Of a stretch of 64,000 nucleotides of DNA, positions 406-63,864 are shown piece after piece (positions within the stretch are counted from its first letter, which is position 1; every line of letters starts with the position of its first letter). The notes under the pieces are model-generated. The model worked only from the letters and a program-made list of their open reading frames with translations. It searched no databases and was not told the DNA's origin. Source of the DNA: Proteobacteria bacterium UBA981. Lineage in GTDB: Bacteria > Pseudomonadota > Gammaproteobacteria > Ga0077536. The position numbers were made by a program, and so were the translations under genes. The stretch is from the NCBI GenBank assembly GCA_002292285.1, contig DBBP01000026.1, positions 30,209 through 94,208 on the forward strand. Reading direction: 5' to 3'.

Positions 406-1032
406 ATGACGGATTCGAATTTTGTAGCCGGTAACAGCACGCACATTGATCCCGGCTGTATTGTCGGCTTGAGTTACAAAGACAACGCACCCACGACTCG
501 TTTGGGCGACAATTGCTTCATTCGCGCGGGCTCAATCATTTACGCCGGCGTGGTCATCGGTGACCATGTGCAAACGGGTCACCATGTGATGATTCGCGAG
601 AATACGAAAATCGGTAACCACGTCGTGATCGGCACTAATTCGGTGTGCGACGGCAATACAACCATCGATGCGTTCGTGAAGATAGAGTCCAATTGCTACA
701 TCTCAACGCATTGCAGCATCGGAACGCGGGTATTTCTTGGCCCCGGTGTTGTCCTGACAAACGATCGCTACCCCCTAAAACTCCGCGACACCTACAAGCC
801 GGAAGGCGTCATTCTGGAAGACGGTGTGACCTTGGGTGCGGGTGTGGTCGTATGTCCGGGCGTGACCATCGGTGCCGATAGTTTTGTCGCGGCCGGCGCT
901 GTAGTGACGCGGGATATTCCGCCACGCAGCTTCGTGAAGGGCGTGCCAGGGCAGATTTCGGCATTGCCACCTGAACTCGCAGAACGCAACATGGCGTTGT
1001 CGTGGCGCGGGTTTCTCGACCCAGATTCCTAA
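406..1032 (+). CDS. wbpD: Hexapeptide-repeat (left-handed beta-helix) sugar N-acetyltransferase, WbpD/PglD-like
   Basis: 208 aa with repeated [LIV]-G-x-x-x-x hexapeptides (IGDHVQTGHHVMI, IGNHVVIGTNSV, LGAGVVVCPGVTIGADSFV). GGAGAA RBS sits 8 nt upstream. Context is the adjacent oxidoreductase/aminotransferase and 2-epimerase. Confidence 0.75.
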   Translation: MTDSNFVAGNSTHIDPGCIVGLSYKDNAPTTRLGDNCFIRAGSIIYAGVVIGDHVQTGHHVMIRENTKIGNHVVIGTNSVCDGNTTIDAFVKIESNCYISTHCSIGTRVFLGPGVVLTNDRYPLKLRDTYKPEGVILEDGVTLGAGVVVCPGVTIGADSFVAAGAVVTRDIPPRSFVKGVPGQISALPPELAERNMALSWRGFLDPDS

Positions 1033-3188
1033 GCGGCGAAGGCTCGGCAAGAAATTTTTTTACCAGTGCAGCGTTGGATTACAGAGTATTGAAAATCGGA
1101 CTCATCGGGTGCGGAAAACAAGCACCAAAACATATTTCCGGATTGGCCAAACAAGCTGATGTTGAACTCGTCGTTTGCGACATCAACGCCGAGCGAGCGC
1201 GTGCCGTCGGCGAGAAATTCTCACTCGCATGGACCGACGACGTAGCAGGATTGCTTGCCGATGGCGACATTACTGCCGTTGACATTGCAACCCCGACTAT
1301 GTCGCATGCGCCACTGGTTCTCCAGGCGATTGAGAATGGCAAACACTTCTTCTGCGAAAAGCCACTTTGCCAGAATCTCGATGAAGCGCGGCTGATTGCG
1401 GACACCTGCGCGAAGAAAGGCCTGATCGGCATGGTCGGATATGTTTATCGTTATGCGCCAGTATTCGAAACGGGTCACGCGTTGCTACATCCAGATACGA
1501 CACGAGATCATGTGCTGGGTGAGCCGGTCTCAGCGTGGTTCCGTATCGGCGGCCGCGGTGACCACGAATTGTGGAAGCACAAGAAAGAGTCGTCCGGTGG
1601 CGCAACTTCGGAAATGCTGGTCCATATGCTTGATTTGGCCATCTGGTACTTCGGGGCAGCAAAGTCGGCTCAATTGCTCGCCCACGAACTACGGCGTCCA
1701 ATCAGACACATCGCCGGCGCTGACGTTACCGTTGACGCCGAGGATTTCGTACTGGCGCGATTCGAGATGGAGAACGGCGGATCGGTGTTTATCCAGTCTG
1801 ACTTGCTGACGCCGGCGTTTTCTCAGCACGTAGAGATGCAGTTTGAACGCGGCACATTTTTGGGATCAATCCAGGCGGACTCGCCATCGTTTGTATTCGC
1901 GACCGCGAAATGTGACGACTACGAAGCCGGCAAAACACCGCTCGAGTTTGGACCGGTCAACCTGTTTGAACGCCAAATGGGCGCTTTTTGCGAGCACGTG
2001 CGCAGCGGCACGCCGCTGTCGCGGAATTCGGTCGAAGATTCTTTAAAAGTAATGGAAGCACTCGAAATGCTTCGACAACAATGGGGTGATGCGGTGATTG
2101 GGATATCAGATACGAGTCTGACCGAGAACGAAATCGAGGCAGCTATCAAGGTCCTGCGCTCGGGCATGCTGCGCCAGGGCAAGGAGAGCGATGCGTTCGA
2201 AGAGGAGTTCGCAGAGAAAGTCGGCGCCGCTCACGCGGTTACGTGTGCCAATGGCTCAGCGGCATTGCATCTGGCCTACCTTGCCGCACTTGAGCCGGGT
2301 GACGAGGTCCTGGTTCCTGCGTTTACCTTCATCGCTACCGGCAGCATGGCCTCGATCATGGGGGCGAAACCGATTTTTTGTGATGTTGACCCGAACACAT
2401 TTTTACTCGACCTCGATGACGCAAGATCGAAGATTACTGCAAAGACGAAAGGCATCGCGCCAGTCCACCTGTTTGGCAACCCGTGCGATATAGACGCCGT
2501 GCAACAATTTGCTGCGGATCACGGCCTGAAGATCTTCTGGGATGCTGCACAGAGTCATGGGGCGACTCATCAGCAACGTGACGTCGGTAGCTTCGACGAT
2601 TTCGTCTGTTATTCGTTTTACCCTTCCAAGAATATGTTTGTCGGCGAAGGCGGCATGGTGTGTACGAATAATGCCGAGTACGAGAACAAGCTGCGTTACT
2701 TACGCAGTCACGGCCAGACTGGCAAGTACCACCACACAAGCCTTGGGTTAAATTACCGACTGACTGATATGGAAGCGGCCATCGGTCGGGAGCAGCTAAA
2801 ACGACTGGACAGCATGCTGGCGAGTCGGCGGCGTAACGCGCAACGGATGTGCGCGGGGCTCGATGGCATCGATGGCATCACGGCACAAACAGTCACTGCC
2901 GGCGGTGACCATGCCTGGCATCAGTTCTGTGTGTTGGTGGATAAGCGCGAATTTGGCTGCGACCGCGACGCCTTGTCCGCGCATCTTAAAACTGAAGGGG
3001 TAATGAGTGGGATTCACTATCCTCGTGGCTTGCATCAGCAGCCCATTTTTGAAGAGCTTTACGGCAAAAGCCAGCTTCCGGTAACGGAAGATTTGTCCGA
3101 GCGGATTCTCGCCCTGCCTATTCACCATAGCCTGGTTGATGCAGATATTGACGGGGTCCTTGCGGCGATTGCCAAGATCGCGTCCTAG
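1002..3188 (+). CDS. Fused bifunctional enzyme: N-terminal Gfo/Idh/MocA NAD-dependent sugar-nucleotide 3-dehydrogenase (WbpB/WlbA-like) plus C-terminal DegT/DnrJ/EryC1 PLP aminotransferase (WbpE/WlbC-like)
   Basis: Single uninterrupted 728-aa ORF. Residues about 30-350 carry a Rossmann motif (KIGLIGCGKQA) and Gfo/Idh/MocA features. Residues about 360-728 carry DegT motifs (GKESDAFEEEFAEKVGAAHAVTCANGSAALHLA, PLP-lysine region SFYPSKNMFVGEGG). The ATG at 1002 overlaps the upstream gene by 31 nt; an in-frame TTG at 1089 (L-KIGLIGCG) is an alternative start. Confidence 0.8.
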   Translation: MARVSRPRFLSGEGSARNFFTSAALDYRVLKIGLIGCGKQAPKHISGLAKQADVELVVCDINAERARAVGEKFSLAWTDDVAGLLADGDITAVDIATPTMSHAPLVLQAIENGKHFFCEKPLCQNLDEARLIADTCAKKGLIGMVGYVYRYAPVFETGHALLHPDTTRDHVLGEPVSAWFRIGGRGDHELWKHKKESSGGATSEMLVHMLDLAIWYFGAAKSAQLLAHELRRPIRHIAGADVTVDAEDFVLARFEMENGGSVFIQSDLLTPAFSQHVEMQFERGTFLGSIQADSPSFVFATAKCDDYEAGKTPLEFGPVNLFERQMGAFCEHVRSGTPLSRNSVEDSLKVMEALEMLRQQWGDAVIGISDTSLTENEIEAAIKVLRSGMLRQGKESDAFEEEFAEKVGAAHAVTCANGSAALHLAYLAALEPGDEVLVPAFTFIATGSMASIMGAKPIFCDVDPNTFLLDLDDARSKITAKTKGIAPVHLFGNPCDIDAVQQFAADHGLKIFWDAAQSHGATHQQRDVGSFDDFVCYSFYPSKNMFVGEGGMVCTNNAEYENKLRYLRSHGQTGKYHHTSLGLNYRLTDMEAAIGREQLKRLDSMLASRRRNAQRMCAGLDGIDGITAQTVTAGGDHAWHQFCVLVDKREFGCDRDALSAHLKTEGVMSGIHYPRGLHQQPIFEELYGKSQLPVTEDLSERILALPIHHSLVDADIDGVLAAIAKIAS

Positions 3189-4780: not shown

Positions 4781-6160
4781 ATGACAGCTGACCAACCCAG
4801 CCCCTTGCGCGTATTGATGGCGCCGCAAAATTTCGCCGATCAGCCGATGGCGCTGGTCCGCGCATTACGCAAGAAGGGATTCGATGCCCATCAGATCCAT
4901 TACACGGCACATGGGGTTCATCCACTCGGTTACGCGCTCGATCGTGCCATCGAGATTGAGGATCTGGATATCAGGAAACAACTTGAGGTGCTGGAGCAGT
5001 GCCTGGAGGAAGGTTTCGATATTTACCATTTCTGGCAGCGTTCGTTACTCCATGACCGACCGCTACGTGGGTTGACCGGGCTGGACCTGCCGTTGATTAA
5101 GGCGCGCGACGCGAGCATATTTCACCGCTTCACAGGCGCAGACTTGCGCATGTCGGAGAAGGACCGCAGCTTTAACAAATTCAGCCCTTACCATTACGGA
5201 TACACGAATCCGTTCGACGAGAAAAGACAAGCAGCCTATCTCGACTTCCTTAAGGACTACGTTGAGACGTTTTTCGTACAGGACCCCGAGATGGCTCAAT
5301 TCTTCCCGGACGCCAGAATTCTTCCACGTGGCCTTGAACTGGACAATTGGCAGCCGATCGGAATCCAAGCATCCGAGCGCCCTTTAATCGTACACGCGCC
5401 CAGCAATCCGTTGGTCAAGGGGTCCCGATTTATCATGGAGGCTGTCGAGCAGCTTCAGCGCGAAAATCTCAGTTTTGAATTCAAACAACTTGACCGTGTG
5501 CCTCACGAGCAAGCGCGTGAGTGGTACGAGAAAGCAGACATCATCGTCGACCAGATTCTCATCGGGGCTACTGGCGTTTTAACACTCGAAGCCTGGGCTC
5601 TCGCCAAGCCCTGTGTGACTTTTTTACGTGAAGACTTGTTCCAGTCGTTTTATCAGACGTCTGATCTGCCGGTTGCGAATGCGACACCAGACACAATCAC
5701 GACAGTATTGCGAAACTTGATAAAGGATTTCGAATGGCGTGAGGACCTCGCGCGACGAGGCCGTGAAACGGTGGAGAAGTTCCACAACATTAACGATATT
5801 GCCGACCAGTATGCTTCGATATGTGAGCAGGCGCGTATCGGTCGCACCCTATCGAAGCAGGACACCGCCGATGTGCGATTTTTACGGCAGGGAATTGCGT
5901 CTGGCATTGACGACAAACCCGCGCGTTTGAGTTTCGAATTGGGGATGGCGCGCCAGCATCCGAAATTGGCCGCTCTGGGTGGCAGATACTTCAGTCTGCA
6001 ACAACAGTTCTTCGCGGTGTTGTTGCGAATGCAGGTTCGATTGATTCGCACGGTCATTGTCGCCGCTATCTGGCTGGCAGGGCGCGTTAGAGCCGTATTG
6101 GGAAAGGATCGTACGCAGGCCGAGGCGGCGGGCACAGGCAGGAAAAACGACAATCAGTAG
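4781..6160 (+). CDS. GT-B-like putative glycosyltransferase of unassigned family (paralog A of 12482..13741)
   Basis: 459 aa. Shares blocks with the ORF at 12482..13741: VLMAPQNF/VLMAPKNY, YDIYHFW, LIKAR, RFTG.D.R, FVQDPE..QF.P.A...PR.L.L.W, VVHA.SN...KG.RFI..AV..LQ.E.L.F. The C-terminal half resembles a GT1 C-domain (ADIIVDQILIGATGVLTLEAWALAKPCV). Confidence 0.6.
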   Translation: MTADQPSPLRVLMAPQNFADQPMALVRALRKKGFDAHQIHYTAHGVHPLGYALDRAIEIEDLDIRKQLEVLEQCLEEGFDIYHFWQRSLLHDRPLRGLTGLDLPLIKARDASIFHRFTGADLRMSEKDRSFNKFSPYHYGYTNPFDEKRQAAYLDFLKDYVETFFVQDPEMAQFFPDARILPRGLELDNWQPIGIQASERPLIVHAPSNPLVKGSRFIMEAVEQLQRENLSFEFKQLDRVPHEQAREWYEKADIIVDQILIGATGVLTLEAWALAKPCVTFLREDLFQSFYQTSDLPVANATPDTITTVLRNLIKDFEWREDLARRGRETVEKFHNINDIADQYASICEQARIGRTLSKQDTADVRFLRQGIASGIDDKPARLSFELGMARQHPKLAALGGRYFSLQQQFFAVLLRMQVRLIRTVIVAAIWLAGRVRAVLGKDRTQAEAAGTGRKNDNQ

Positions 6161-9730: not shown

Positions 9731-11203
9731 ATGACTGATGGCGGCCAGCGCGGGCAAGATTCTGAAATTGCCTTACCCGGATTCGGACTGAATATCGCTG
9801 GCCAGTATCCGAGGTTCTATCGCAGGATGGTTGCTGTGCTGGAATGGCAGAATAAACATGTCCCGCTACTGTTTCGACTAGAAATGGTGCTGTTTCGTAC
9901 CATAATTGTCATTGTCGATGCGGTCCTTTGGATTCTGCTTGGTAACTTAGCCCTGACGGGAGTGGCGCCTGGCAAACTGTCACGTGGTTACTCTTCATAC
10001 AGAGGGTCGTCGCGAAGTTACAATTCCCGCGAATTAGTTAATGAGATCGCCCAGCTAAATAGAAAGCTAGAGCGCTATACCCCAAATATCGCGGTGATCT
10101 CATATCTTACTTTCGCCCAGCGCTGTGTCGAAACCAGTACGGCGCTAGCTGCCGACGCGTACGTCGCGCACGGGGTTCAGTCTTTGCCAACGGCGTCTAT
10201 TCTCGCCAACGAGCAGGGCGGGAAATACTATTGCGACTGCATTGAAACCCCTTCGTTCTTTGACCGAGCCTTGCCGGTCAACTGGGATGTGACCAATACC
10301 CATTTTCTGGACAGGGCGTTCGAAAGTTATCTACGTCACGCCGACGGTATCCTCACTGTTGGTTGGACCCTGGCTGATCAGCTAAGGAAGCTACACAACA
10401 ATGTAGCGGTGATTCCGAACTATCGATATGCCGAAACTCTCGCGCCAAATGATTGGTTGCGAGAAAAATGCGGGGTTTCCGAAGACACCGATCTGGTGCT
10501 GTCGTTGAACACGGTAACCGCTGGATTGGATGTTGTGCTGGCGGCACTCGCACTACTTCCTCCTAGCGTACACCTTGTGACTGTAGGTAGGTTCGCCCCA
10601 GTCGGTTACCGAGAAACCTGCGAAAAATATGCGGCAGAACAAGGCGTCCTCGAGCGGTTTCATTGTCTCGATCCCCTTCCGTACAAAGATCTCACGGCGA
10701 CGATTTCGATGGCATCGGCCGGATTGATTGTGCTCGACCCCAGCATTAAGAATGTTCAGGTCTCACTTCCGAATCGAATCTTCGACTATATGTTCGCAGG
10801 GGTACCGATTTGTTCGCCGCTCATTCCAGATATCGCCCGAATTATCGCTGACGAGAATATTGGTGGCATCGTCACTGATCTAAGCCCGGCCGGATGGGCC
10901 GAAACTATCAGTAGCGTGTTGCAAGAAAAGGATAAGCTCCGCGACAACGCGGTCACGGCATCGAAAAAGTACATATGGGAATCAGTCGAGGACGACCTGT
11001 TTGAGTCCCTGGGTAGACCCGCCAGCGTGTGCTACGTCGGCGCAAGCAATTTACGCGAGAACAATCGAACGATGCGCATGGCACGCTCGCTGGTCGCTCG
11101 TGGCGTTGAGGTAACTGTTTGTTACAGATGCAGGCCTGGAGAGACACCTAACGACGCGGCGGTATTGGATGACGGAATCAAGTTCGTATCACTTGCTAAT
11201 TAA
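9731..11203 (+). CDS. Glycosyltransferase family 1 (GT4-type) with N-terminal TM segment
   Basis: 490 aa. AGGAGA RBS 7 nt upstream. The C-terminal domain is GT1-like (LVTVGRFAPVGYRE..., FDYMFAGVPICSPLIPDIARII). Confidence 0.75.
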   Translation: MTDGGQRGQDSEIALPGFGLNIAGQYPRFYRRMVAVLEWQNKHVPLLFRLEMVLFRTIIVIVDAVLWILLGNLALTGVAPGKLSRGYSSYRGSSRSYNSRELVNEIAQLNRKLERYTPNIAVISYLTFAQRCVETSTALAADAYVAHGVQSLPTASILANEQGGKYYCDCIETPSFFDRALPVNWDVTNTHFLDRAFESYLRHADGILTVGWTLADQLRKLHNNVAVIPNYRYAETLAPNDWLREKCGVSEDTDLVLSLNTVTAGLDVVLAALALLPPSVHLVTVGRFAPVGYRETCEKYAAEQGVLERFHCLDPLPYKDLTATISMASAGLIVLDPSIKNVQVSLPNRIFDYMFAGVPICSPLIPDIARIIADENIGGIVTDLSPAGWAETISSVLQEKDKLRDNAVTASKKYIWESVEDDLFESLGRPASVCYVGASNLRENNRTMRMARSLVARGVEVTVCYRCRPGETPNDAAVLDDGIKFVSLAN

Positions 11204-11492
11204 CGATGGACGCGCCCTACCTTCCCGATTGCTGTTGAAAAAAGTGACAAATGACAGGCTGATAATCTGCGGCGCAACTATTCGGACAATTTAACTCACG
11301 ATAGGTAGCGGCAGAGTGGCGCTGCGACATCGGAGGGCGTTTTGACGCTGCCAATTTTCGCCGAACTACGACCGAGCAGGCTCAGAATTTCGGCCACTGT
11401 TGTCCGTAGATTACAGCGCATCGAGGCCACTACCGCCCGTCGCATTGCAACAATAGCGAACGGTATAGTCCACAGCTGCGGATTGCCCTGGG

Positions 11493-12333
11493 TCATGATG
11501 CCAGCGGTAGAAATCGGTTTCTGGAAGCTCCCGCGGTCCCAACCAGCATTGTGCAGGGCGGCCGACTTCGAAATGCCCTCGGTGTGACTTCGACGGTTGG
11601 GTCTATCAACCGCAAAGTAAACGCGAGTCTGTTTGGCACTTCGGTAGAGCGAAGGCCCGGCAGCGCATGACTTGAGCCGTGGATTAGTAGCGGATGGAAA
11701 ATGAAAAACTCCCCGGGGCTGCATAACCAAACGAGAAACAGTGTCCGTGGTTGCGCCTGCAAACCTCGTGTTTCCTCGTCCAGCGAGGAGCTTTTTCGTC
11801 AGGCCAAAACGACTTCGCAATTCCGAGTAATCGAGCAGGTGAGATCCGGGAATGACCACAGCACAATTCTCGGCCGGTGCTGCGGACACAGCAACCTGAA
11901 CTGAAATCTGGTGCTCGTCGGGATTCGCGTGGGTGAGGACCTTCCGATAAGTGTCTCTGTGCAACGGTAAATTCGGAACGCCCGAGAATATTGCCGTTCG
12001 CCAAATCGAGATGTTCGGACCAAGGAGGGATTGGCACGTCGTAATGAGCGCGGACGAACGACATATTGCTGCCGCAACAGGCGAATCCAAATGCGGGTTT
12101 AGCGACCCGGGAATTTCTCCGCGGCGAAAGGATTCTTCAAATCTGGCAGTCACAGATTGGTCAATCCCAGGCAGGGGGCCGGCATACCCGAATTCAGCAA
12201 ATGAAGTAACAACGTCGTCTTCCACGATAGGGACCTCTGAGCAACGAAATGGAACCGACCGATCGGCGTGATAACGTTTGAAACGGATTTCCCTGCCGAC
12301 CGTTCGAGCAGTGGACCTGAGACCGGGAATCAC
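11493..12333 (-). pseudogene. Phytanoyl-CoA dioxygenase (PhyH)-family Fe(II)/2-oxoglutarate oxygenase, disrupted by frameshift(s)
   Basis: The frame starting at 12333 encodes a PhyH-like N-half with the HxD motif (PLHRDTY) and AVVIPGSHLL. The C-terminal motif GEFFIFHPLLIHGSSHALPGLRSTEVPNR (Gxxx[FI]FHxxxxHxSxxNxS...R) lies in a different frame (ORF 11493..11762). A third frame also carries pieces around 11684..12064. Confidence 0.5.
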
Positions 12334-12481
12334 GTCAAGTTGGGGTCGCTTGCCAGCGATTCGCCGTGCCAGGCTGATTGCCTACACAGCCCGTTCTCCC
12401 TGCCGAAAGCCGCAACAGACCGTGGACGATTGCAGCGAATTTCGCGTTGATAATCCATTCCCCGTCGGAACCATCTATTTG

Positions 12482-13741
12482 TTATGGAATGAGTGCTCGT
12501 TTGAACAGGTGTTCGCCTAGTCGGGCTTTTCTGAATTCGTATCTATTTTGAGTTTCAATTCGCGGTTCTCTTTGGCGACTGTTTTGAGTTCGCGGCGTAG
12601 GTAGTTGACCGTTTGTAACGTACTTCTGTGTTGCTGGATTTGTTCGGCGAGGTAGTCGAAATCGCCGAAACCAGGGGCCGTCGGTCCGCTGCGGTCCGCT
12701 GCGGTCCGCGACCTCGTGATAGACCTTGAGCAATTGTTCGGCAACGTTTTTCACGTCGAAGTGCGTTTCGATGAAATGTCGCCCTTGTATCGACAGTTCC
12801 TTTCGGTGCTCCAAGTCTGTAATAAGTAAGCGGAGCTTGTCCTTGATATTGTCCGGATTGACATTTTCTACGGGTACGTTTCCGTAGGCGGGCTTGTACA
12901 AATCGTCACGAATGTAATTCATTGTCGCTTTGCCGAGCGCCATGCATTCCATCGCAAATACGGTCAGACAGCCCTGGTGGAGGTTGTCAATGCAAATGTC
13001 GGCGCCTTTATAGATTTTAATCGCGTCCGAATGCATAAGATTGCTCACCTTTGTGTACCTGAACTTCAGTCCCTCATCTTGCAGTTCGGCGACGGCCTGT
13101 TCGATGAACCGCGTTCCCTTCAACATGTCGTTCGTAGAGGCGTGTACCACCACCGGATGTTTATCATTTTGAAGTCCAACATTCGGCCAATCTTCGAGTT
13201 TCAGGCATCGGGGTACGACGGTGGCTTCAGGAATGAACTGTTGAAGTTCAGGATCTTGAACGACGAATTGGTCAACGTGAGCACGCAAATATTCCACGTA
13301 CCGTCGGAGATCCGTTTCATCGTATGGTGACTCGTACCCATAGTTGTAGAAGCTGTAGGGATTCACCTCTTTATCCAGCGATGGGTAGCGGATGTCGTTG
13401 CCGGTGAACCGATAGATGACCTTCTTCCCGCGTGCTTTAATTAGCGCGATGTCCATGCCCATGAACATCTCATAGGGTCGACCGACGAAGAACATCGAGC
13501 GGTTCCAGAAATGGTAAATGTCATAGTTTTCAGCCAGCGAATCCTGCAGGGCTTTGAGTTGCCCTTCGATGACGTGAGCGGGATCCAGATTTACGGTCTT
13601 GTGTGACCGATAGCCCATCGAAGCGCTCGCATCGGTACTAACGTATTCAAGTTGGTCGACATCTTGTCCCATGGCGCGTAGCCGTTCGCCAAGCAAGTAG
13701 ACTTGGCCGGAATAGTTCTTGGGTGCCATGAGTACTTTCAT
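12482..13741 (-). CDS. GT-B-like putative glycosyltransferase of unassigned family (paralog B of 4781..6160); 3' end disturbed by a 10-bp tandem repeat
   Basis: 419 aa sharing the motif blocks listed for 4781..6160. The last about 70 residues look like out-of-frame translation (Arg/Pro-rich). An overlapping frame (12517..12744) encodes a protein-like coiled-coil tail. GC is lower than in neighbouring genes. Confidence 0.6.
   Translation of the reverse strand: MKVLMAPKNYSGQVYLLGERLRAMGQDVDQLEYVSTDASASMGYRSHKTVNLDPAHVIEGQLKALQDSLAENYDIYHFWNRSMFFVGRPYEMFMGMDIALIKARGKKVIYRFTGNDIRYPSLDKEVNPYSFYNYGYESPYDETDLRRYVEYLRAHVDQFVVQDPELQQFIPEATVVPRCLKLEDWPNVGLQNDKHPVVVHASTNDMLKGTRFIEQAVAELQDEGLKFRYTKVSNLMHSDAIKIYKGADICIDNLHQGCLTVFAMECMALGKATMNYIRDDLYKPAYGNVPVENVNPDNIKDKLRLLITDLEHRKELSIQGRHFIETHFDVKNVAEQLLKVYHEVADRSGPQRTDGPWFRRFRLPRRTNPATQKYVTNGQLPTPRTQNSRQREPRIETQNRYEFRKARLGEHLFKRALIP
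12683..12712. repeat. Direct tandem repeat, 10-bp unit GGTCCGCTGC x2 plus degenerate third copy GGTCCGCGAC
   Basis: Seen directly at 12683-12712. Each 10-bp unit shifts the reading frame by +1. Confidence 0.85.
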
Positions 13742-14040
13742 AGGGATTGCTCGAGAAAATATTGAAATTCGGAAACCGGCGACGGCTATTCGACATCGCC
13801 ATCGAAAAGCATACGTGTTGTTGTCATTTCTTTCGAGGTACCACGGCGGAGCAATTCAAATTTGGCGCTTTTAGTGAGTACGGTTCCACGCTAACCGACG
13901 CAGTTCTCGATCGCTGGGTGATGACGATCTATCTGTCGGGAATCGAATTCATGCCGAGGTAACCGGTTATTTTAAGCGCGGTCTATTCGGATACCGCTGA
14001 TATTTCGCACAGGGAGATATTCACGGCTTTCGTCAGCCTA

Positions 14041-16212
14041 TTATTTCAGATGATCCTCCGTGCCACTCTGCCATCCGAGAGCGGTCGCTATTTGATCCGT
14101 CACAAGCTGCGCAGTGTAAGGGGCGAGATGATCATCGTCGGTGTAGAAAAGCCGGCTTTTATCGTGGGTGTAGCACCGCTGAGTCGTCTCTAAACACAAA
14201 AGTTGGTCCGGAAAAACTCTGTGCAGGCGAGGATGTTCGCCGACGCCATCCAGAATCTGTGAACTTAGTTTCGAGCGCTGCTTGAAGACGGGATAACTCG
14301 TCGTGATCTCCAGCTCTTTGAACGCGCGTAATTGTTGATACTTTGCGTGCTGGTCCAGCTCGCCTTTAACCAGGTTCGGGACGTGCCAACCCACTTCTGG
14401 GATGGGATAGACGATGACGACGGTATGTCCGAGGTCTAGCCACTCTCGGATCATGCCGTGAATTTTCGCGACTACGGTGTCGCCCGGGGTTGCGAATTCG
14501 TCGAGCCGTAAAGACGGTTTAACGTCTTGAGCGGGTTCCAATCCACCCTCACGATTATCGAAGCGAGATCCATTCAAAATTAGCGGGAAGCGGCCTGAAA
14601 GCACGATGGTCGAGGGTTCCTGAGCCGCTAGAAAATCTTTCAAGTCCTGCGTTCGAGCGCGGCATTTAGTATTGTCCTTGCCACCATCCGATCGAATTGT
14701 GCCATAGACAGGCAGGCAAGCGTTGCTGGTTAATTGAGCGTAGTTCGCCCGATTCGCTCGAGCGGCATCCAGCAAGCTCACTGCAAGCGTGCGTGCGTGA
14801 CTATCGCCAACAAGAATCAGAGTCGTCGAGGCGGCCGAGGTCTCGAATCTACAATGCGAATCGATGGCTTGCTTTCGACAAGCCGTTCCATCCTGAACGA
14901 CGTAGCGAGGGCGTGCGCGTTCATACAAGTCAACTAAGACCCCCAGTCGGCTCGGGATCCCATCGTAGTAGTAGATGCCCCCATATGCTGCCAAAAGAGT
15001 TAGAAATGCGGCTAGCGAATAACTGTAGAAATTTCGTCGACAAATTCTGTGGGATTGCCGTGCGGGTCTTTCAATCAGAAAGAAGGATAGCCCTGACAAT
15101 ACGAACGCTATTCCGATACATGCAAGCATCTCGCCCTGGGTCGGCGCCTGGCTTTTCATCCGCGCGAAAGCGAAGAGCGGAAAATGCCACAAATACAGAG
15201 CATATGAGATGAGACCGATCGCGACGAATAGCCGCGTAGACAGAACGTTAGTTATCAGTTCGCCGGGTTTCATAAACCAAATCAACAGCGCGGTGCCGAT
15301 GATCGGAAAGCAAGTTATATAGGAAGGGTGATTTATCGTGTCGTCAAAGAAAATGACTGTGCCCAGGACGAGCGATAGCCCAAGCGCAGGCATGGTCGCA
15401 TCGAGAATTGAATGGCTCAGGCGACCGCGGCCATACGTCAGCTTTGCAAGAAGCGACCCGGTTAACAGTTCCCATGCCCGGGTCGGAAAAAGGAAAAAAG
15501 CAAAGGCCGGCGATTCGTCGCTAGTGTGGTGCGCGAATTGTAACGATATGAGAAGACCGACGATCATTACAGCGCTGATATGAGATTTTAGGAATCGCCA
15601 AAAAAGCACGAGGGCGAGTGGGAATAGCAAGTAAAACTGCTCCTCCACAGACAAGCTCCAGGTATGCAGGAGTGGCTTTAGTGCGCTCGGTGCGGCTGTG
15701 TAACTATCTTCCTGCCAGAACCATACGTTCGAACCGAAAAACAAAGCAGACAAACCCGAACCTGCGAATTCTTTCATCGCTTTTGGCAACATATGCATCC
15801 AGGCGAATGGTAGACAGGCAAGCATTACCGTAAAAAGAGCCGGAAGTATCCTGCGCGCCCGTCTTTCGTAGAAATGCGCGAAGGTGAAAGCTTGTTCGTC
15901 TAGTTCGTGAAGAACAACGGACGTTATGAGATATCCGGAAATAACGAAAAATATGTCCACTCCAATGAATCCGCCCGCGAACATGTCCAATGCCAGAATT
16001 GACGGCCGGGCGTGGTACAACACGACGAGCAACACTGCGATGGCTCGCAGACCATCAATTTCAGGTCGATATTTAACGGGCATCGGGTATTTCGTCGCGG
16101 CCGGATTCAGTAAATCTGGAATCATGTGCAGTGTCCATCTGCGTGAAACACTCGTCAATCTTGTACCTTTGCCGAAACGCTCCGTACATTGCTGAGAATC
16201 GGCTTTGGGCAC
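14041..16212 (-). CDS. Acyltransferase family 3 (OafA/WecH-like) membrane O-acyltransferase with C-terminal SGNH domain
   Basis: 723 aa. N-terminal motif RPEIDGLRAIAVLLVVLYH...FFVISGYLI and about 10 TM helices. C-terminal SGNH-like block (LILVGDSHARTLA). The true start is probably the internal Met at about 16125 (MIPDLL...). Confidence 0.8.
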   Translation of the reverse strand: MPKADSQQCTERFGKGTRLTSVSRRWTLHMIPDLLNPAATKYPMPVKYRPEIDGLRAIAVLLVVLYHARPSILALDMFAGGFIGVDIFFVISGYLITSVVLHELDEQAFTFAHFYERRARRILPALFTVMLACLPFAWMHMLPKAMKEFAGSGLSALFFGSNVWFWQEDSYTAAPSALKPLLHTWSLSVEEQFYLLFPLALVLFWRFLKSHISAVMIVGLLISLQFAHHTSDESPAFAFFLFPTRAWELLTGSLLAKLTYGRGRLSHSILDATMPALGLSLVLGTVIFFDDTINHPSYITCFPIIGTALLIWFMKPGELITNVLSTRLFVAIGLISYALYLWHFPLFAFARMKSQAPTQGEMLACIGIAFVLSGLSFFLIERPARQSHRICRRNFYSYSLAAFLTLLAAYGGIYYYDGIPSRLGVLVDLYERARPRYVVQDGTACRKQAIDSHCRFETSAASTTLILVGDSHARTLAVSLLDAARANRANYAQLTSNACLPVYGTIRSDGGKDNTKCRARTQDLKDFLAAQEPSTIVLSGRFPLILNGSRFDNREGGLEPAQDVKPSLRLDEFATPGDTVVAKIHGMIREWLDLGHTVVIVYPIPEVGWHVPNLVKGELDQHAKYQQLRAFKELEITTSYPVFKQRSKLSSQILDGVGEHPRLHRVFPDQLLCLETTQRCYTHDKSRLFYTDDDHLAPYTAQLVTDQIATALGWQSGTEDHLK

Positions 16213-36176: not shown

Positions 36177-37367
36177 ATGGCCACTGAGGCGAAAGCGTCG
36201 CGGCATGCCATGCCAACCGTGCTGATGGTCGTCACCGAGGATTGGTACTTCATCTCTCATCGCCTGGATCTCGCTTGTCATATTCGCGACGCCGGGTTCA
36301 GGGTTGTTGTCGCAACCCGTGTCGGTGCCCACGAACCAACCATCATTGCAGCGGGTTTGGAGTTTGTTCGGATCCCATTCGAGCGTTCGTTGCGCCATCC
36401 CGTCCGTGATCTGCAAGCGCTGGTGGCTCTGAACAGAGCGATTGCACAATTGGAGCCCGACATCGTCCATTTGGTTTCGTTGAAACCAATATTGTTGGGT
36501 GCGATCGCATTGGCACGAAGACGTCACCGGGCGCCCGCAGTGTGGGCGTTTACTGGCATGGGTTATTTGTTTTCTTCAAACGGTTTCGTTGCGCGGGTGA
36601 TGCGGCCACTCGTTTCGGGCGCACTGAAGCACCTCAATCAAGGGTCTCGCTGCGCGATGATGGTACAGAACGATGCCGATGCCGCCTTACTTCATGAACT
36701 TGGTATCGCGTTACCTGCTCACACGACGATTGTTCCGGGCAGCGGGCTTGCCATGGATAAATTCTCACCAGCCTCGGGCGCGCCGGAAGGGCCGTCGATC
36801 GTACTCATGCCTGCCCGCTTACTGCGCGATAAAGGCATCTACGAATTCGCCGCCGCGGCGCGCCTTGTCCATCAACAGCATCCGCACGTTCGCTTTGTTC
36901 TGGCTGGGCGTTTCGACCGCGATAACCATGGCGCAGTGGCTAACCAGGATCTGCAAACCTGGATTGACGAAGATTTACTCGAATGGTGGGGGCATCGCGA
37001 GGACATGCTGGAAGTCTATCGCCTGGCCTCGATTGTTTGTTTGCCGTCGTATCGCGAAGGCTTGCCCAGAGTCTTGCTAGAGGCCGGAGCGTGCGCGAAG
37101 CCGCTGGTTGCGACTGATGTACCCGGTTGTCGCGATGTTTGCGTCGATGGTAAAACGGGATTGAGGGTCCCTGTCTGTGACAGTGCTGCGCTTGCAACAG
37201 CCATCAGTACGCTGCTCAGCGATCCCGCATACGCACATGCGCTTGGGCTTGCCGCCCGAGAGTTGGTTCGGGAGCGATTTACGATTGAATCAATCGGTGA
37301 ACAAACGATTGCGATGTATCGCGACTTGCTGGTGCGTGCTGCCCAGTCGGACGGGCTATCACGATGA
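36177..37367 (+). CDS. Glycosyltransferase family 1 (GT4-type)
   Basis: C-domain ...ASIVCLPSYREGLPRVLLEAGACAKPLVATDVPGCRDV... (E-x7-E). The likely start is Met 12 (36210). Confidence 0.8.
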   Translation: MATEAKASRHAMPTVLMVVTEDWYFISHRLDLACHIRDAGFRVVVATRVGAHEPTIIAAGLEFVRIPFERSLRHPVRDLQALVALNRAIAQLEPDIVHLVSLKPILLGAIALARRRHRAPAVWAFTGMGYLFSSNGFVARVMRPLVSGALKHLNQGSRCAMMVQNDADAALLHELGIALPAHTTIVPGSGLAMDKFSPASGAPEGPSIVLMPARLLRDKGIYEFAAAARLVHQQHPHVRFVLAGRFDRDNHGAVANQDLQTWIDEDLLEWWGHREDMLEVYRLASIVCLPSYREGLPRVLLEAGACAKPLVATDVPGCRDVCVDGKTGLRVPVCDSAALATAISTLLSDPAYAHALGLAARELVRERFTIESIGEQTIAMYRDLLVRAAQSDGLSR

Positions 37368-63183: not shown

Positions 63184-63864
63184 TTGTTTTCATCAATGCC
63201 AGTGTTGGTGCCTTTGCTCGCCAGTACGCTCGCCAGTACGCTCGCCAAAAAGCGAGATCACAATTTTGAGGTACTTCGGTTCACTTGCTTAGCGTACTTA
63301 GGGTCAGCCGTTTTCGCCTCGACACAAGGCGGTTATCAATGGGGACCTCGATACCTCCAAGCCGTCGTTCCTATTGCTCTTCTGCTTTCCTGGCTTAGCG
63401 TGAAAGATTTGAGGGCGTTCTCAAAACGGTGAGGGATTAGGTACAACCACGCAAAATGGGGGCTCGTTGCGCTGGTCGCCTTGACGGCACTCATGACGGT
63501 GAAGGGCGTTATTTTCATACTCAATGATGTGCAAGAAAGGCGTACCAATGAGGTCGCGCTAAGAAGTGTCGATACTGACTACGTCTTCCATAGAGAATAT
63601 GCGGTGCACCACCCAACGCTAATCAGAACCGCCTACAAAGTTGGCCGGGCAGAAGGTATCCCGACGGTCCTTGACCTCATTGCCAAAGAACGCTTCTCGT
63701 GTGCCATTTATACTCTTGATGCTCAAAAAGTGGAGAAGCAATTACGGGATGCCCAAATCCCGTATGTCCGCAGGGATTCCGGGCGGACAATAATTTACGC
63801 CTCCCCGAATTCCGATCAAAGGCACGAAATTTCGATTTTTTCTGTCTATTCGTTGGCCAGCTGA
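63184..63864 (+). pseudogene. Membrane-protein gene remnant interrupted by an in-frame TGA (63433-63435), in a lower-GC patch
   Basis: ORFs 63184..63432 and 63481..63864 are in the same frame, separated only by a TGA. Both halves are hydrophobic and helix-rich. The N-terminal part contains a 12-bp tandem repeat. GC is visibly lower than in the flanks. Confidence 0.3.
63217..63247. repeat. 12-bp direct tandem repeat CTCGCCAGTACG x2 plus partial third copy
   Basis: Seen directly. In frame (encodes LAST-LAST-LA) within ORF 63184..63432. Confidence 0.8.

Follow-up and report, generated by a model that had tools for sequence, protein, structure and literature searches.

A recent 10-bp tandem duplication that probably deprives a GT4-like glycosyltransferase of its conserved C-terminal tail in a near-clonal marine bacterial population

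Switching of pneumococcal capsule genes and its reversion were reportedly observed in culture by Waite et al., together with a capsule phenotype, and mutations in the genomic islands of Prochlorococcus are said by Avrani et al. 2011 to bring about loss of surface-glycan functions under phage selection. In PMC4022640, which cites the work (Waite et al. 2001, PMID 11886554; Waite et al. 2003, PMID 12624211), spontaneous tandem duplications in the genes cap3A, cap8E and tts are named as a cause of pneumococcal capsule phase variation. The contingency loci of Haemophilus, Neisseria and Campylobacter, as portrayed in PMC4235727, have long repeat tracts conserved across strains, with many length alleles, and switch at rates of 1e-5 to 1e-2. 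The present study deals with a 10-bp tandem repeat in the 3' part of a gene for a GT4-like glycosyltransferase, located in a surface-polysaccharide cluster of Proteobacteria bacterium UBA981 (contig DBBP01000026.1). The whole stretch of DNA analysed, 64,000 nucleotides, is referred to as the window, and the coordinates of its features discussed here are listed in Table 1. The best explanation of the repeat, to which a probability of about 0.72 is given, is a genuine, recent and heritable slippage duplication, which produced a tail-loss allele that dominates a near-clonal population.

With regard to mechanism, the pneumococcal capsule duplications can be regarded as the closest analogue. There, as here, a perfect duplication lying inside an open reading frame (ORF) shifts the frame of a surface-polysaccharide gene, the unduplicated allele coexists with the duplicated one, and exact loss of one copy would restore the gene. 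The differences are that the allele contrast described here is known from metagenome sequences alone, in a free-living marine bacterium, and that the C-terminal tail alone is affected, rather than the enzyme being knocked out early. The locus shares with contingency loci a non-triplet repeat inside a glycan-related coding region and a repeat number that varies between very close, near-clonal relatives. Unlike contingency loci, it contains 2-3 copies of a 10-mer, occurs as two alleles instead of many length alleles, has a copy number that follows the lineage instead of varying independently of it, and has an ortholog without the repeat where a conserved tract would be expected. As in mutations of the Prochlorococcus type, a glycosyltransferase is frameshifted in an abundant marine bacterium, within a surface-polysaccharide island that is variable and recombining, and several neighbouring genes carry disruptive variants too, whereas the tie of the present allele to phage is circumstantial. 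The duplication adds one more case to a kind of mutation already known and reveals no new mechanism.

On the forward strand, positions 12683-12712 read GGTCCGCTGC GGTCCGCTGC GGTCCGCGAC, that is, two perfect 10-bp units and a differing third. Tandem Repeats Finder (TRF) places the array at 12682-12709 with a period of 10, 2.8 copies, 100% matches and a score of 56, the second highest array in the window. Direct reading and TRF both agree with the preliminary description of this DNA, which had reported three 10-bp copies, the third degenerate. Two arrays of such quality are present in the window, this repeat and an in-frame 12-mer at 63216. A self-match of 18 bases at an offset of 4-15 was obtained in 0/200 first-order Markov simulations of the window, and since none of the simulated sequences gave a comparable tandem match, a chance origin of the tandem repeat is excluded. 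At 10 bp, the length of the unit is not divisible by three, and the tract lies inside the ORF of a surface-polysaccharide gene. The 10-mer is not enriched in the window (6 matches with at most 1 mismatch, against 7.2 expected), and its role as a dispersed repeat or regulatory motif was rejected on these grounds. A scan of 11200-14100 for promoters and terminators returned nothing above shuffle expectation. The second perfect tandem repeat, at 63216-63247, consists of GCTCGCCAGTAC x 2.7 with a period of 12; it is in frame and encodes LAST-LAST-LA in frame +0.

The duplication shifts the reading frame of the glycosyltransferase gene after residue 349. The product of 419 amino acids (aa) comprises an intact GT4-like catalytic core of the GT-B type (residues 1-349), which the duplication leaves untouched, and an out-of-frame tail (residues 350-419). 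In this frame the sequence reads ...KVYHEVADRSGP, then QRTDGPWFRRFRLPRRT..., being basic and proline-rich, and the last 70 residues contain ...ADRSGPQRTDGPWFRRFRLPRRT..., while the overlapping ORF 12517..12744 contains ...ADRSGPTAPGFGDFDYLAEQIQQHRSTLQTVNYLRRELK... and carries ...ADRSGPTAPGFGDFDYLAEQIQQHRSTLQTVNYLRRELKTVAKENRELKLKIDTNSEKPD. Removal of one unit in silico yields a single 404-aa product with its stop at 12517; the preliminary description had expected the two frames to be fused in this way, and a protein with exactly this 404-aa sequence does occur in nature. The placement of the continuing coding signal in the +1 frame by that description also holds for the native tail, which is in the +1 frame of the gene as now read, with the correction that the frame read with three copies is shifted by 2 bases relative to that of the native tail. 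The frame is disrupted relative to orthologs, as in a pseudogene; there is no other lesion and the tail DNA is identical to that of the intact allele.

In order to establish which frame is native, the tail was compared among homologs. With the repaired protein as query, 77 relatives were obtained, and motif counts were taken from 53 family members. The tails of the closest intact relatives (63%, 62% and 53% identity) align with the repaired frame, the tail of P0003 reading PGTSDFAYIIETLQQARLTLQSNNYLKRQVKKLK. Downstream of the frameshift point, P352 is found in 48/53 relatives, D357 in 47/53 and Q364 in 43/53, and Y360 is found in 42/53, with H in 7 and F in 3 of the others. The C-terminal segment of the family can be written as P-x-G-x-x-D-[IVL]-[DE]-Y-[FL]-x-x-Q, after which comes a helix of 45 residues. 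The comparison of ortholog tails proposed in the preliminary description thus favours the repaired frame, with which homolog tails agree and in which the motif is conserved. Between the intact allele and the ortholog L086, which is 86% identical at the DNA level, the core has a ratio of nonsynonymous to synonymous substitution rates (dN/dS) of 0.135. For the tail the ratio is 0.225 when the DNA is read in the repaired frame, as against 1.32 for the same tail DNA read in the frame of the window.

Structure prediction is in line with this choice of frame. For the intact 404-aa protein, AlphaFold2 gave a mean predicted local distance difference test (pLDDT) score of 95.2 and a predicted template modelling (pTM) score of 0.91, with a GT-B core extending to about residue 346 and a tail folded as a single helix (residues 356-400; pLDDT 93-97 across blocks 351-390). 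In the model of the 419-aa protein the core is unchanged, with pLDDT of 93-99 up to residue 350, while the last 70 residues score 44-67. The impression that the last ~70 residues of the annotated frame are not genuine is therefore justified, these residues being unconserved and of low confidence, and the real tail lies in ORF 12517..12744, as homolog tails, dN/dS and the predicted helix all indicate; both had been suggested in the preliminary description.

The best Foldseek matches were the retaining GT-B enzymes of family GT4, MshA, PglA, BshA and PimA (E 4e-14 to 1e-11), and two Rossmann-like domains, characteristic of the GT-B fold, are seen in the AlphaFold2 model as well as in these matches. 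The protein shares the predicted two-domain GT-B fold with MshA 3c4q, PglA 8dqd, BshA 3mbo and PimA 2gej with high confidence, but its identity to them is just 12-16%, and its family adds the conserved D-x-[DE]-Y motif and the long C-terminal helix. Scores against GT4-type profiles of Pfam and NCBIfam remained below the curated cut-offs (Glyco_trans_1_2, 17.5 bits against 25; EpsE, 19.6 against 400 bits), and several homologs carry precomputed PF00534 or PF13524 matches. No characterised member of the family was identified among the hits examined; in a scan of genome contigs with the family alignment, the best among the matches listed had 48% identity and came from an alphaproteobacterial metagenome-assembled genome. 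The invariant residues H200, K208, G209, E265 and K271 all lie ahead of the frameshift point, and the mutation is for this reason predicted to take away the conserved tail while sparing the catalytic core.

Both alleles are represented in metagenomes. Scans of a set of metagenome contigs for the flanks of the tract, with a variable gap or as a fixed 41-mer, gave no match, that set evidently lacking the contigs concerned. Allele counts were obtained solely by exact-protein look-ups in a collection of ~15 billion proteins, where the 419-aa protein corresponds to P0078 (P0001 with a later start) and the repaired 404-aa protein corresponds residue for residue to P0079. Two contigs encode P0079, one of 97.6 kb from ERZ6864591 (also in NCBI) and one of 51.9 kb from JGI 3300072015, the more diverged of the two-copy strains. 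Aligned with the window, the ERZ6864591 contig (L085) shows 0 mismatches in 21,215 bp, its one difference there being a 10-bp gap that corresponds to the repeat unit (BLAST gap at 12682-12691), and the duplication can hence be called recent, as the preliminary description had considered. A second stretch of L085, of 20.9 kb, has 4 single-nucleotide polymorphisms (SNPs) relative to the window, which shows that the L085 strain is distinct from, yet extremely close to, that of the window. The three-copy allele was found on at least 24 contigs (20 + 4) from many marine metagenomes. Three copies are present in all 11 retrieved contigs, which have 11 sample accessions and are 99.94-100% identical to the window, and 13 further contigs encode the same three-copy product. 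In this near-clonal marine population, assemblies contain the frameshifted allele far more often than the intact one. One-copy and four-copy products were absent from the ~15 billion proteins, just the two- and three-copy alleles being found. The variant neighbour proteins P0099, P0232 and P0233 led to no further repeat haplotypes, since none of their contigs reaches the repeat, and the Logan contig L099 stops 100 bases short of it, too far for the break to be blamed on a repeat bubble.

At a broader scale, the segments 2482-23741 and 31275-52159 of the window are almost clonal with L001-L004, L085 and L087-L095, being 99.94-100% identical over up to 21 kb. Where these near-clonal contigs do differ, which is rarely, it is mostly by an indel or a changed stop in a polysaccharide gene. 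The organism is uncultured and marine, and probably a gammaproteobacterium: the nearest named relatives were gammaproteobacterial metagenome-assembled genomes with 65-67% identity for PpnN, whereas SthA gave various such genomes, among them Planctomycetota, at about 60%.

Where the duplication is lacking, the allele reads GTC GCGGACCG CA GCGGACCG ACGG and thus contains an 8-bp direct repeat with a spacing of 10 bp, in a region where GCGG and CCGC blocks parted by A alternate to form a quasi-palindrome. The hairpin predicted for single-stranded DNA has an energy of -14.6 kcal/mol (z -2.46) with three copies and of -8.9 kcal/mol (z -1.3) with two. Misalignment of the nascent strand between direct repeats is the textbook route to tandem duplication, and hairpin potential promotes it. 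At the repeat site L086 reads ATTGCCGGCGCCGGCCCCGCGACC, with no repeat, and other relatives have unrelated sequence there; since the L086 sequence is unrelated at the site, the repeat is not an evolved, conserved tract. In the proposed course of events, replication slippage between the two 8-bp direct repeats GCGGACCG of this G+C-rich quasi-palindrome would have duplicated the 10-bp unit in the 3' part of the GT4-like glycosyltransferase gene of the surface-polysaccharide cluster. The conserved C-terminal segment and helix have been replaced by 70 basic, proline-rich residues of low predicted confidence, and the resulting tail-loss allele would have been inherited and come to dominate the near-clonal population. 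Loss of the tail probably abolishes or changes the function of the enzyme, for example through oligomerisation, partner binding or membrane association. Escape from phages or grazers is the usual driver of advantageous change in a surface glycan; the allele may have spread by such an advantage, or may have spread in a side branch that was already dispensable through a frameshift in the adjacent PhyH-like dioxygenase gene, described below. The gene could be repaired by exact loss of a single unit, which should make reversion mechanistically easy, but the data do not require it.

Three haplotypes can be distinguished by SNPs. The window type has three copies, carries no private SNPs and is central. 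Two copies are found in the ERZ6864591 type, whose private SNPs are at 37166, 39090, 41645 and 44484, and the L091 type has three copies and 7 private SNPs, including 4 synonymous ones in the gene and T173I in the neighbouring 490-aa glycosyltransferase, a variant that is also found in a 143-kb contig. A single duplication in an ancestor of the window type, with the L091 type diverging later, explains these haplotypes. Copy number is stably inherited within the SNP-defined lineages, and such tracking of lineage by copy number is not expected of a hypermutable tract.

Several points weigh against a single duplication that disabled the enzyme. The contig counts overstate independence, as some assemblies probably reuse the same samples, and the presumed loss of function is deduced from the conservation of the tail. 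The window and L091 differ within the gene by 4 synonymous third-position changes and 0 nonsynonymous ones, which could mean that the gene is still under purifying selection and functional, or that the tract was imported by recombination. With L086 as outgroup, sites 13559 and 13463 join the window and the two-copy contig against L091; because all four gamete combinations of these sites with the indel are present, they conflict with a single event, and this polarisation hints at recurrence (a second gain), reversion or recombination. Both sites are third-codon positions, the synonymous divergence (dS) of the outgroup is near 0.5 and chance agreement is estimated at roughly 0.15, and the four SNPs in the gene cluster within 260 bp like an imported tract, with clear recombinant tracts in nearby contigs. 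Because of the saturated sites, the clustered SNPs and the recombinant tracts, switching is treated here as possible yet unsupported. A reversible slipped-strand contingency switch would toggle the C-terminal helix, on with two copies and off with three, as a hedge against phages or grazers. Such a switch would suit the non-triplet unit in the coding region of a surface-polysaccharide gene, the variation of copy number without any other difference over 21 kb, the conflict of the two linked, outgroup-polarised synonymous sites with a single event and the stronger hairpin of the three-copy tract. Repeats of 2-3 pentanucleotide copies are already rated mutable to hypermutable in Table 1 of PMC4235727, and precisely reverting spontaneous tandem duplications are described as a pneumococcal capsule switch in the work cited in PMC4022640. 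Nevertheless, a switch is unlikely at this locus: two states are seen and no one- or four-copy product, copy number tracks the SNP lineage, with 11/11 retrieved three-copy contigs keeping three (L091 with its 7 SNPs included), the repeat is unconserved in the 86% ortholog and in all other relatives, with no sign of selection for mutability, and the polarisation depends on two saturated third-codon positions, for which recombination accounts equally well. Of the slipped-strand switch raised in the preliminary description, what stands is that repeat number differs between near-identical genomes, but its two states follow lineage and an ortholog has no repeat. That the repeat works as a reversible switch of the C-terminus in this free-living marine organism, with the core still expressed and L085 as a revertant, is a shade less likely still; if it were true, the near-clonal population would contain two glycan states, flipping under phage or grazer pressure.

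The other explanations concern the product and the reality of the third copy. An improbable one is that replacement of the tail was neutral or beneficial, the three-copy product being still active and its tail dispensable or functionally replaced. The unchanged core pLDDT of the frameshifted model, the position of all invariant residues before residue 349, the exclusively synonymous differences from L091 and the persistence of an allele that dominates the assemblies would all fit such a product; however, the presence of the tail motif in 42-48/53 relatives and its purifying selection argue that the tail matters, 4 SNPs are too few to measure selection and lie within 260 bp like a recombination import, and the adjacent PhyH-like gene is broken too, which fits decay of the block. 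It is highly improbable that the native tail is regained by recoding, through a +1 slip of the ribosome on CCC-U (coding GGC CCC TGG, 12671-12679). The native frame is indeed +1 relative to the three-copy frame with no intervening stop codon, so that the recoded product would read ...ADRSGPQRTDGP-GFGDFDYLAEQ..., a normal tail with a linker three residues longer, and CCC-N is a shift-prone codon context. The site lacks a stimulatory element, however, with neither an upstream Shine-Dalgarno-like sequence nor a slow or stop codon in the A site; it is unconserved as a recoding site, the frameshift being a very recent mutation, and efficiency without a stimulator is expected to be well below 1%. 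Frameshifting in the -1 direction was rejected, as a +1 shift is needed to pass from the three-copy frame to the native one. It is just as hard to credit that the third copy is an assembly or sequencing artefact and not part of the DNA of the organism. Tandem repeats can in general be mis-assembled, and the window evidently comes from a metagenome-derived assembly; yet the three-copy sequence is identical in the 11 contigs from 11 sample accessions, the record names of three-copy contigs (NODE_, k141_, JGI, Logan) point to different assemblers, of SPAdes, MEGAHIT, JGI and Logan style, the two-copy allele of P0079 was recovered elsewhere by the same kinds of pipeline, and a 10-base insertion is atypical of sequencing errors. 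As a read or a typical assembly k-mer is longer than the tract of 28-30 bases, and as several assemblers agree on it, an artefact is ruled out, and the suspicion to this effect in the preliminary description is not upheld. A slippage duplication inherited by most of the population is retained as the preferred reading.

The gene is part of a large cluster that encodes WecB, a DegT/PseC-like aminotransferase, several GT4 enzymes, an AT3-SGNH acyltransferase and an asparagine synthase, and also a WbpM-like dehydratase, GalU and a FemAB protein of the PEP-CTERM-associated type. The acyltransferase gene (14041..16125) belongs to the same block of surface-polysaccharide modification and is a called gene on related contigs. 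The PhyH-like dioxygenase gene is itself frameshifted (+1), since a C4G4 run in it is one base too long (C4 at 11715-11718, G4 at 11711-11714), and the true C-terminal part of its protein is found in ORF 11493..11762. Its reconstruction, with one C deleted, reads ...VMQPGEFFIFHPLLIHGSS..., and the same reading is found in P0225 from the two-copy contig of JGI 3300072015. The frameshift is present in the window and in all close contigs, including L091 and the two-copy L085. Comparison of these sequences suggests a series in which both genes are intact (JGI 3300072015), then the dioxygenase is broken (ERZ6864591), and then both are broken (window), and this stepwise series fits decay or adaptive remodelling of one side branch of a glycan pathway. 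The PhyH-like gene is absent from the L086 locus, where 2176-2560 corresponds to 11204-12516 of the window, with 367 bp as against 1314 bp between the glycosyltransferase genes. L086 is 86% identical to the window in the glycosyltransferase and 95% identical in the gene beside it, and this jump between adjoining genes marks the island as mosaic and recombining. The island is clearly variable.

Table 1. Position and strand of the repeat, the glycosyltransferase gene and neighbouring features in the window
Feature	Position	Strand	Remarks
Glycosyltransferase gene, three-copy allele	13741..12482	minus	419 aa; from the ORF list and translation
Native C-terminal tail coding sequence	12517..12682	minus	out of frame in the window; stop codon 12517-12519; encodes ...TAPGFGDFDYLAEQIQQHRSTLQTVNYLRRELKTVAKENRELKLKIDTNSEKPD
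10-bp tandem repeat	12683-12712		coding strand (minus) reads GGACCGCAGC GGACCGCAGC GGACCGACGG, with GTCGC ahead
PhyH-like dioxygenase gene	11296..12225	minus	downstream, co-directional; weak PhyH Pfam match, N-terminal part only
AT3 + SGNH acyltransferase gene	14041..16125	minus	694 aa as called; upstream, co-directional; Pfam Acyl_transf_3 + SGNH
Glycosyltransferase paralogue, same family	4781..6160	plus	intact, 459 aa; exact protein P0098 on 15 contigs
490-aa glycosyltransferase gene	9731-11203	plus	adjoins the PhyH-like/glycosyltransferase block

Some other features of the island were observed. The paralogue at 4781-6160 is located 6.5 kb away and has its own, longer C-terminal tail with a hydrophobic stretch. 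The last ~40 residues of the 490-aa glycosyltransferase resemble the N-terminus of another GT4 enzyme (Glyco_transf_4 7-37 at aa 446-476), and its end looks as if a following gene had been truncated. L093 has the 490-aa gene in two parts, of 302 + 159 aa; 6 bp are deleted at 10870-10875, and there is a rearrangement near 10160-10185. L100 has 24 SNPs, mostly at 10834-11181, which look like a recombinant tract. On the plus strand, 1002-3188 is a 728-aa ORF in which a GFO_IDH_MocA oxidoreductase is fused to a DegT/PseC-like aminotransferase through TGG at 2082-2084. L098 has TGA there (G2084A) and hence separate genes, and JGI 3300072015 likewise has two genes, of 336 + 364 aa; a change from stop to Trp at 2082-2084 therefore appears to have fused the two genes in the window.

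Several databases list the 419-aa form as an ordinary protein, but it is the product of a frameshift allele; as the 404-aa form is the native one, it is the latter that should be used in annotation and family alignments. The locus provides a clean natural example of a duplication made by slippage, with both alleles present in an almost clonal wild marine population, and a convenient marker by which the replacement of strains, or a possible switching, could be followed in metagenome time series. It also offers a testable case for the role of the conserved C-terminal helix in an uncharacterised family of glycosyltransferases.

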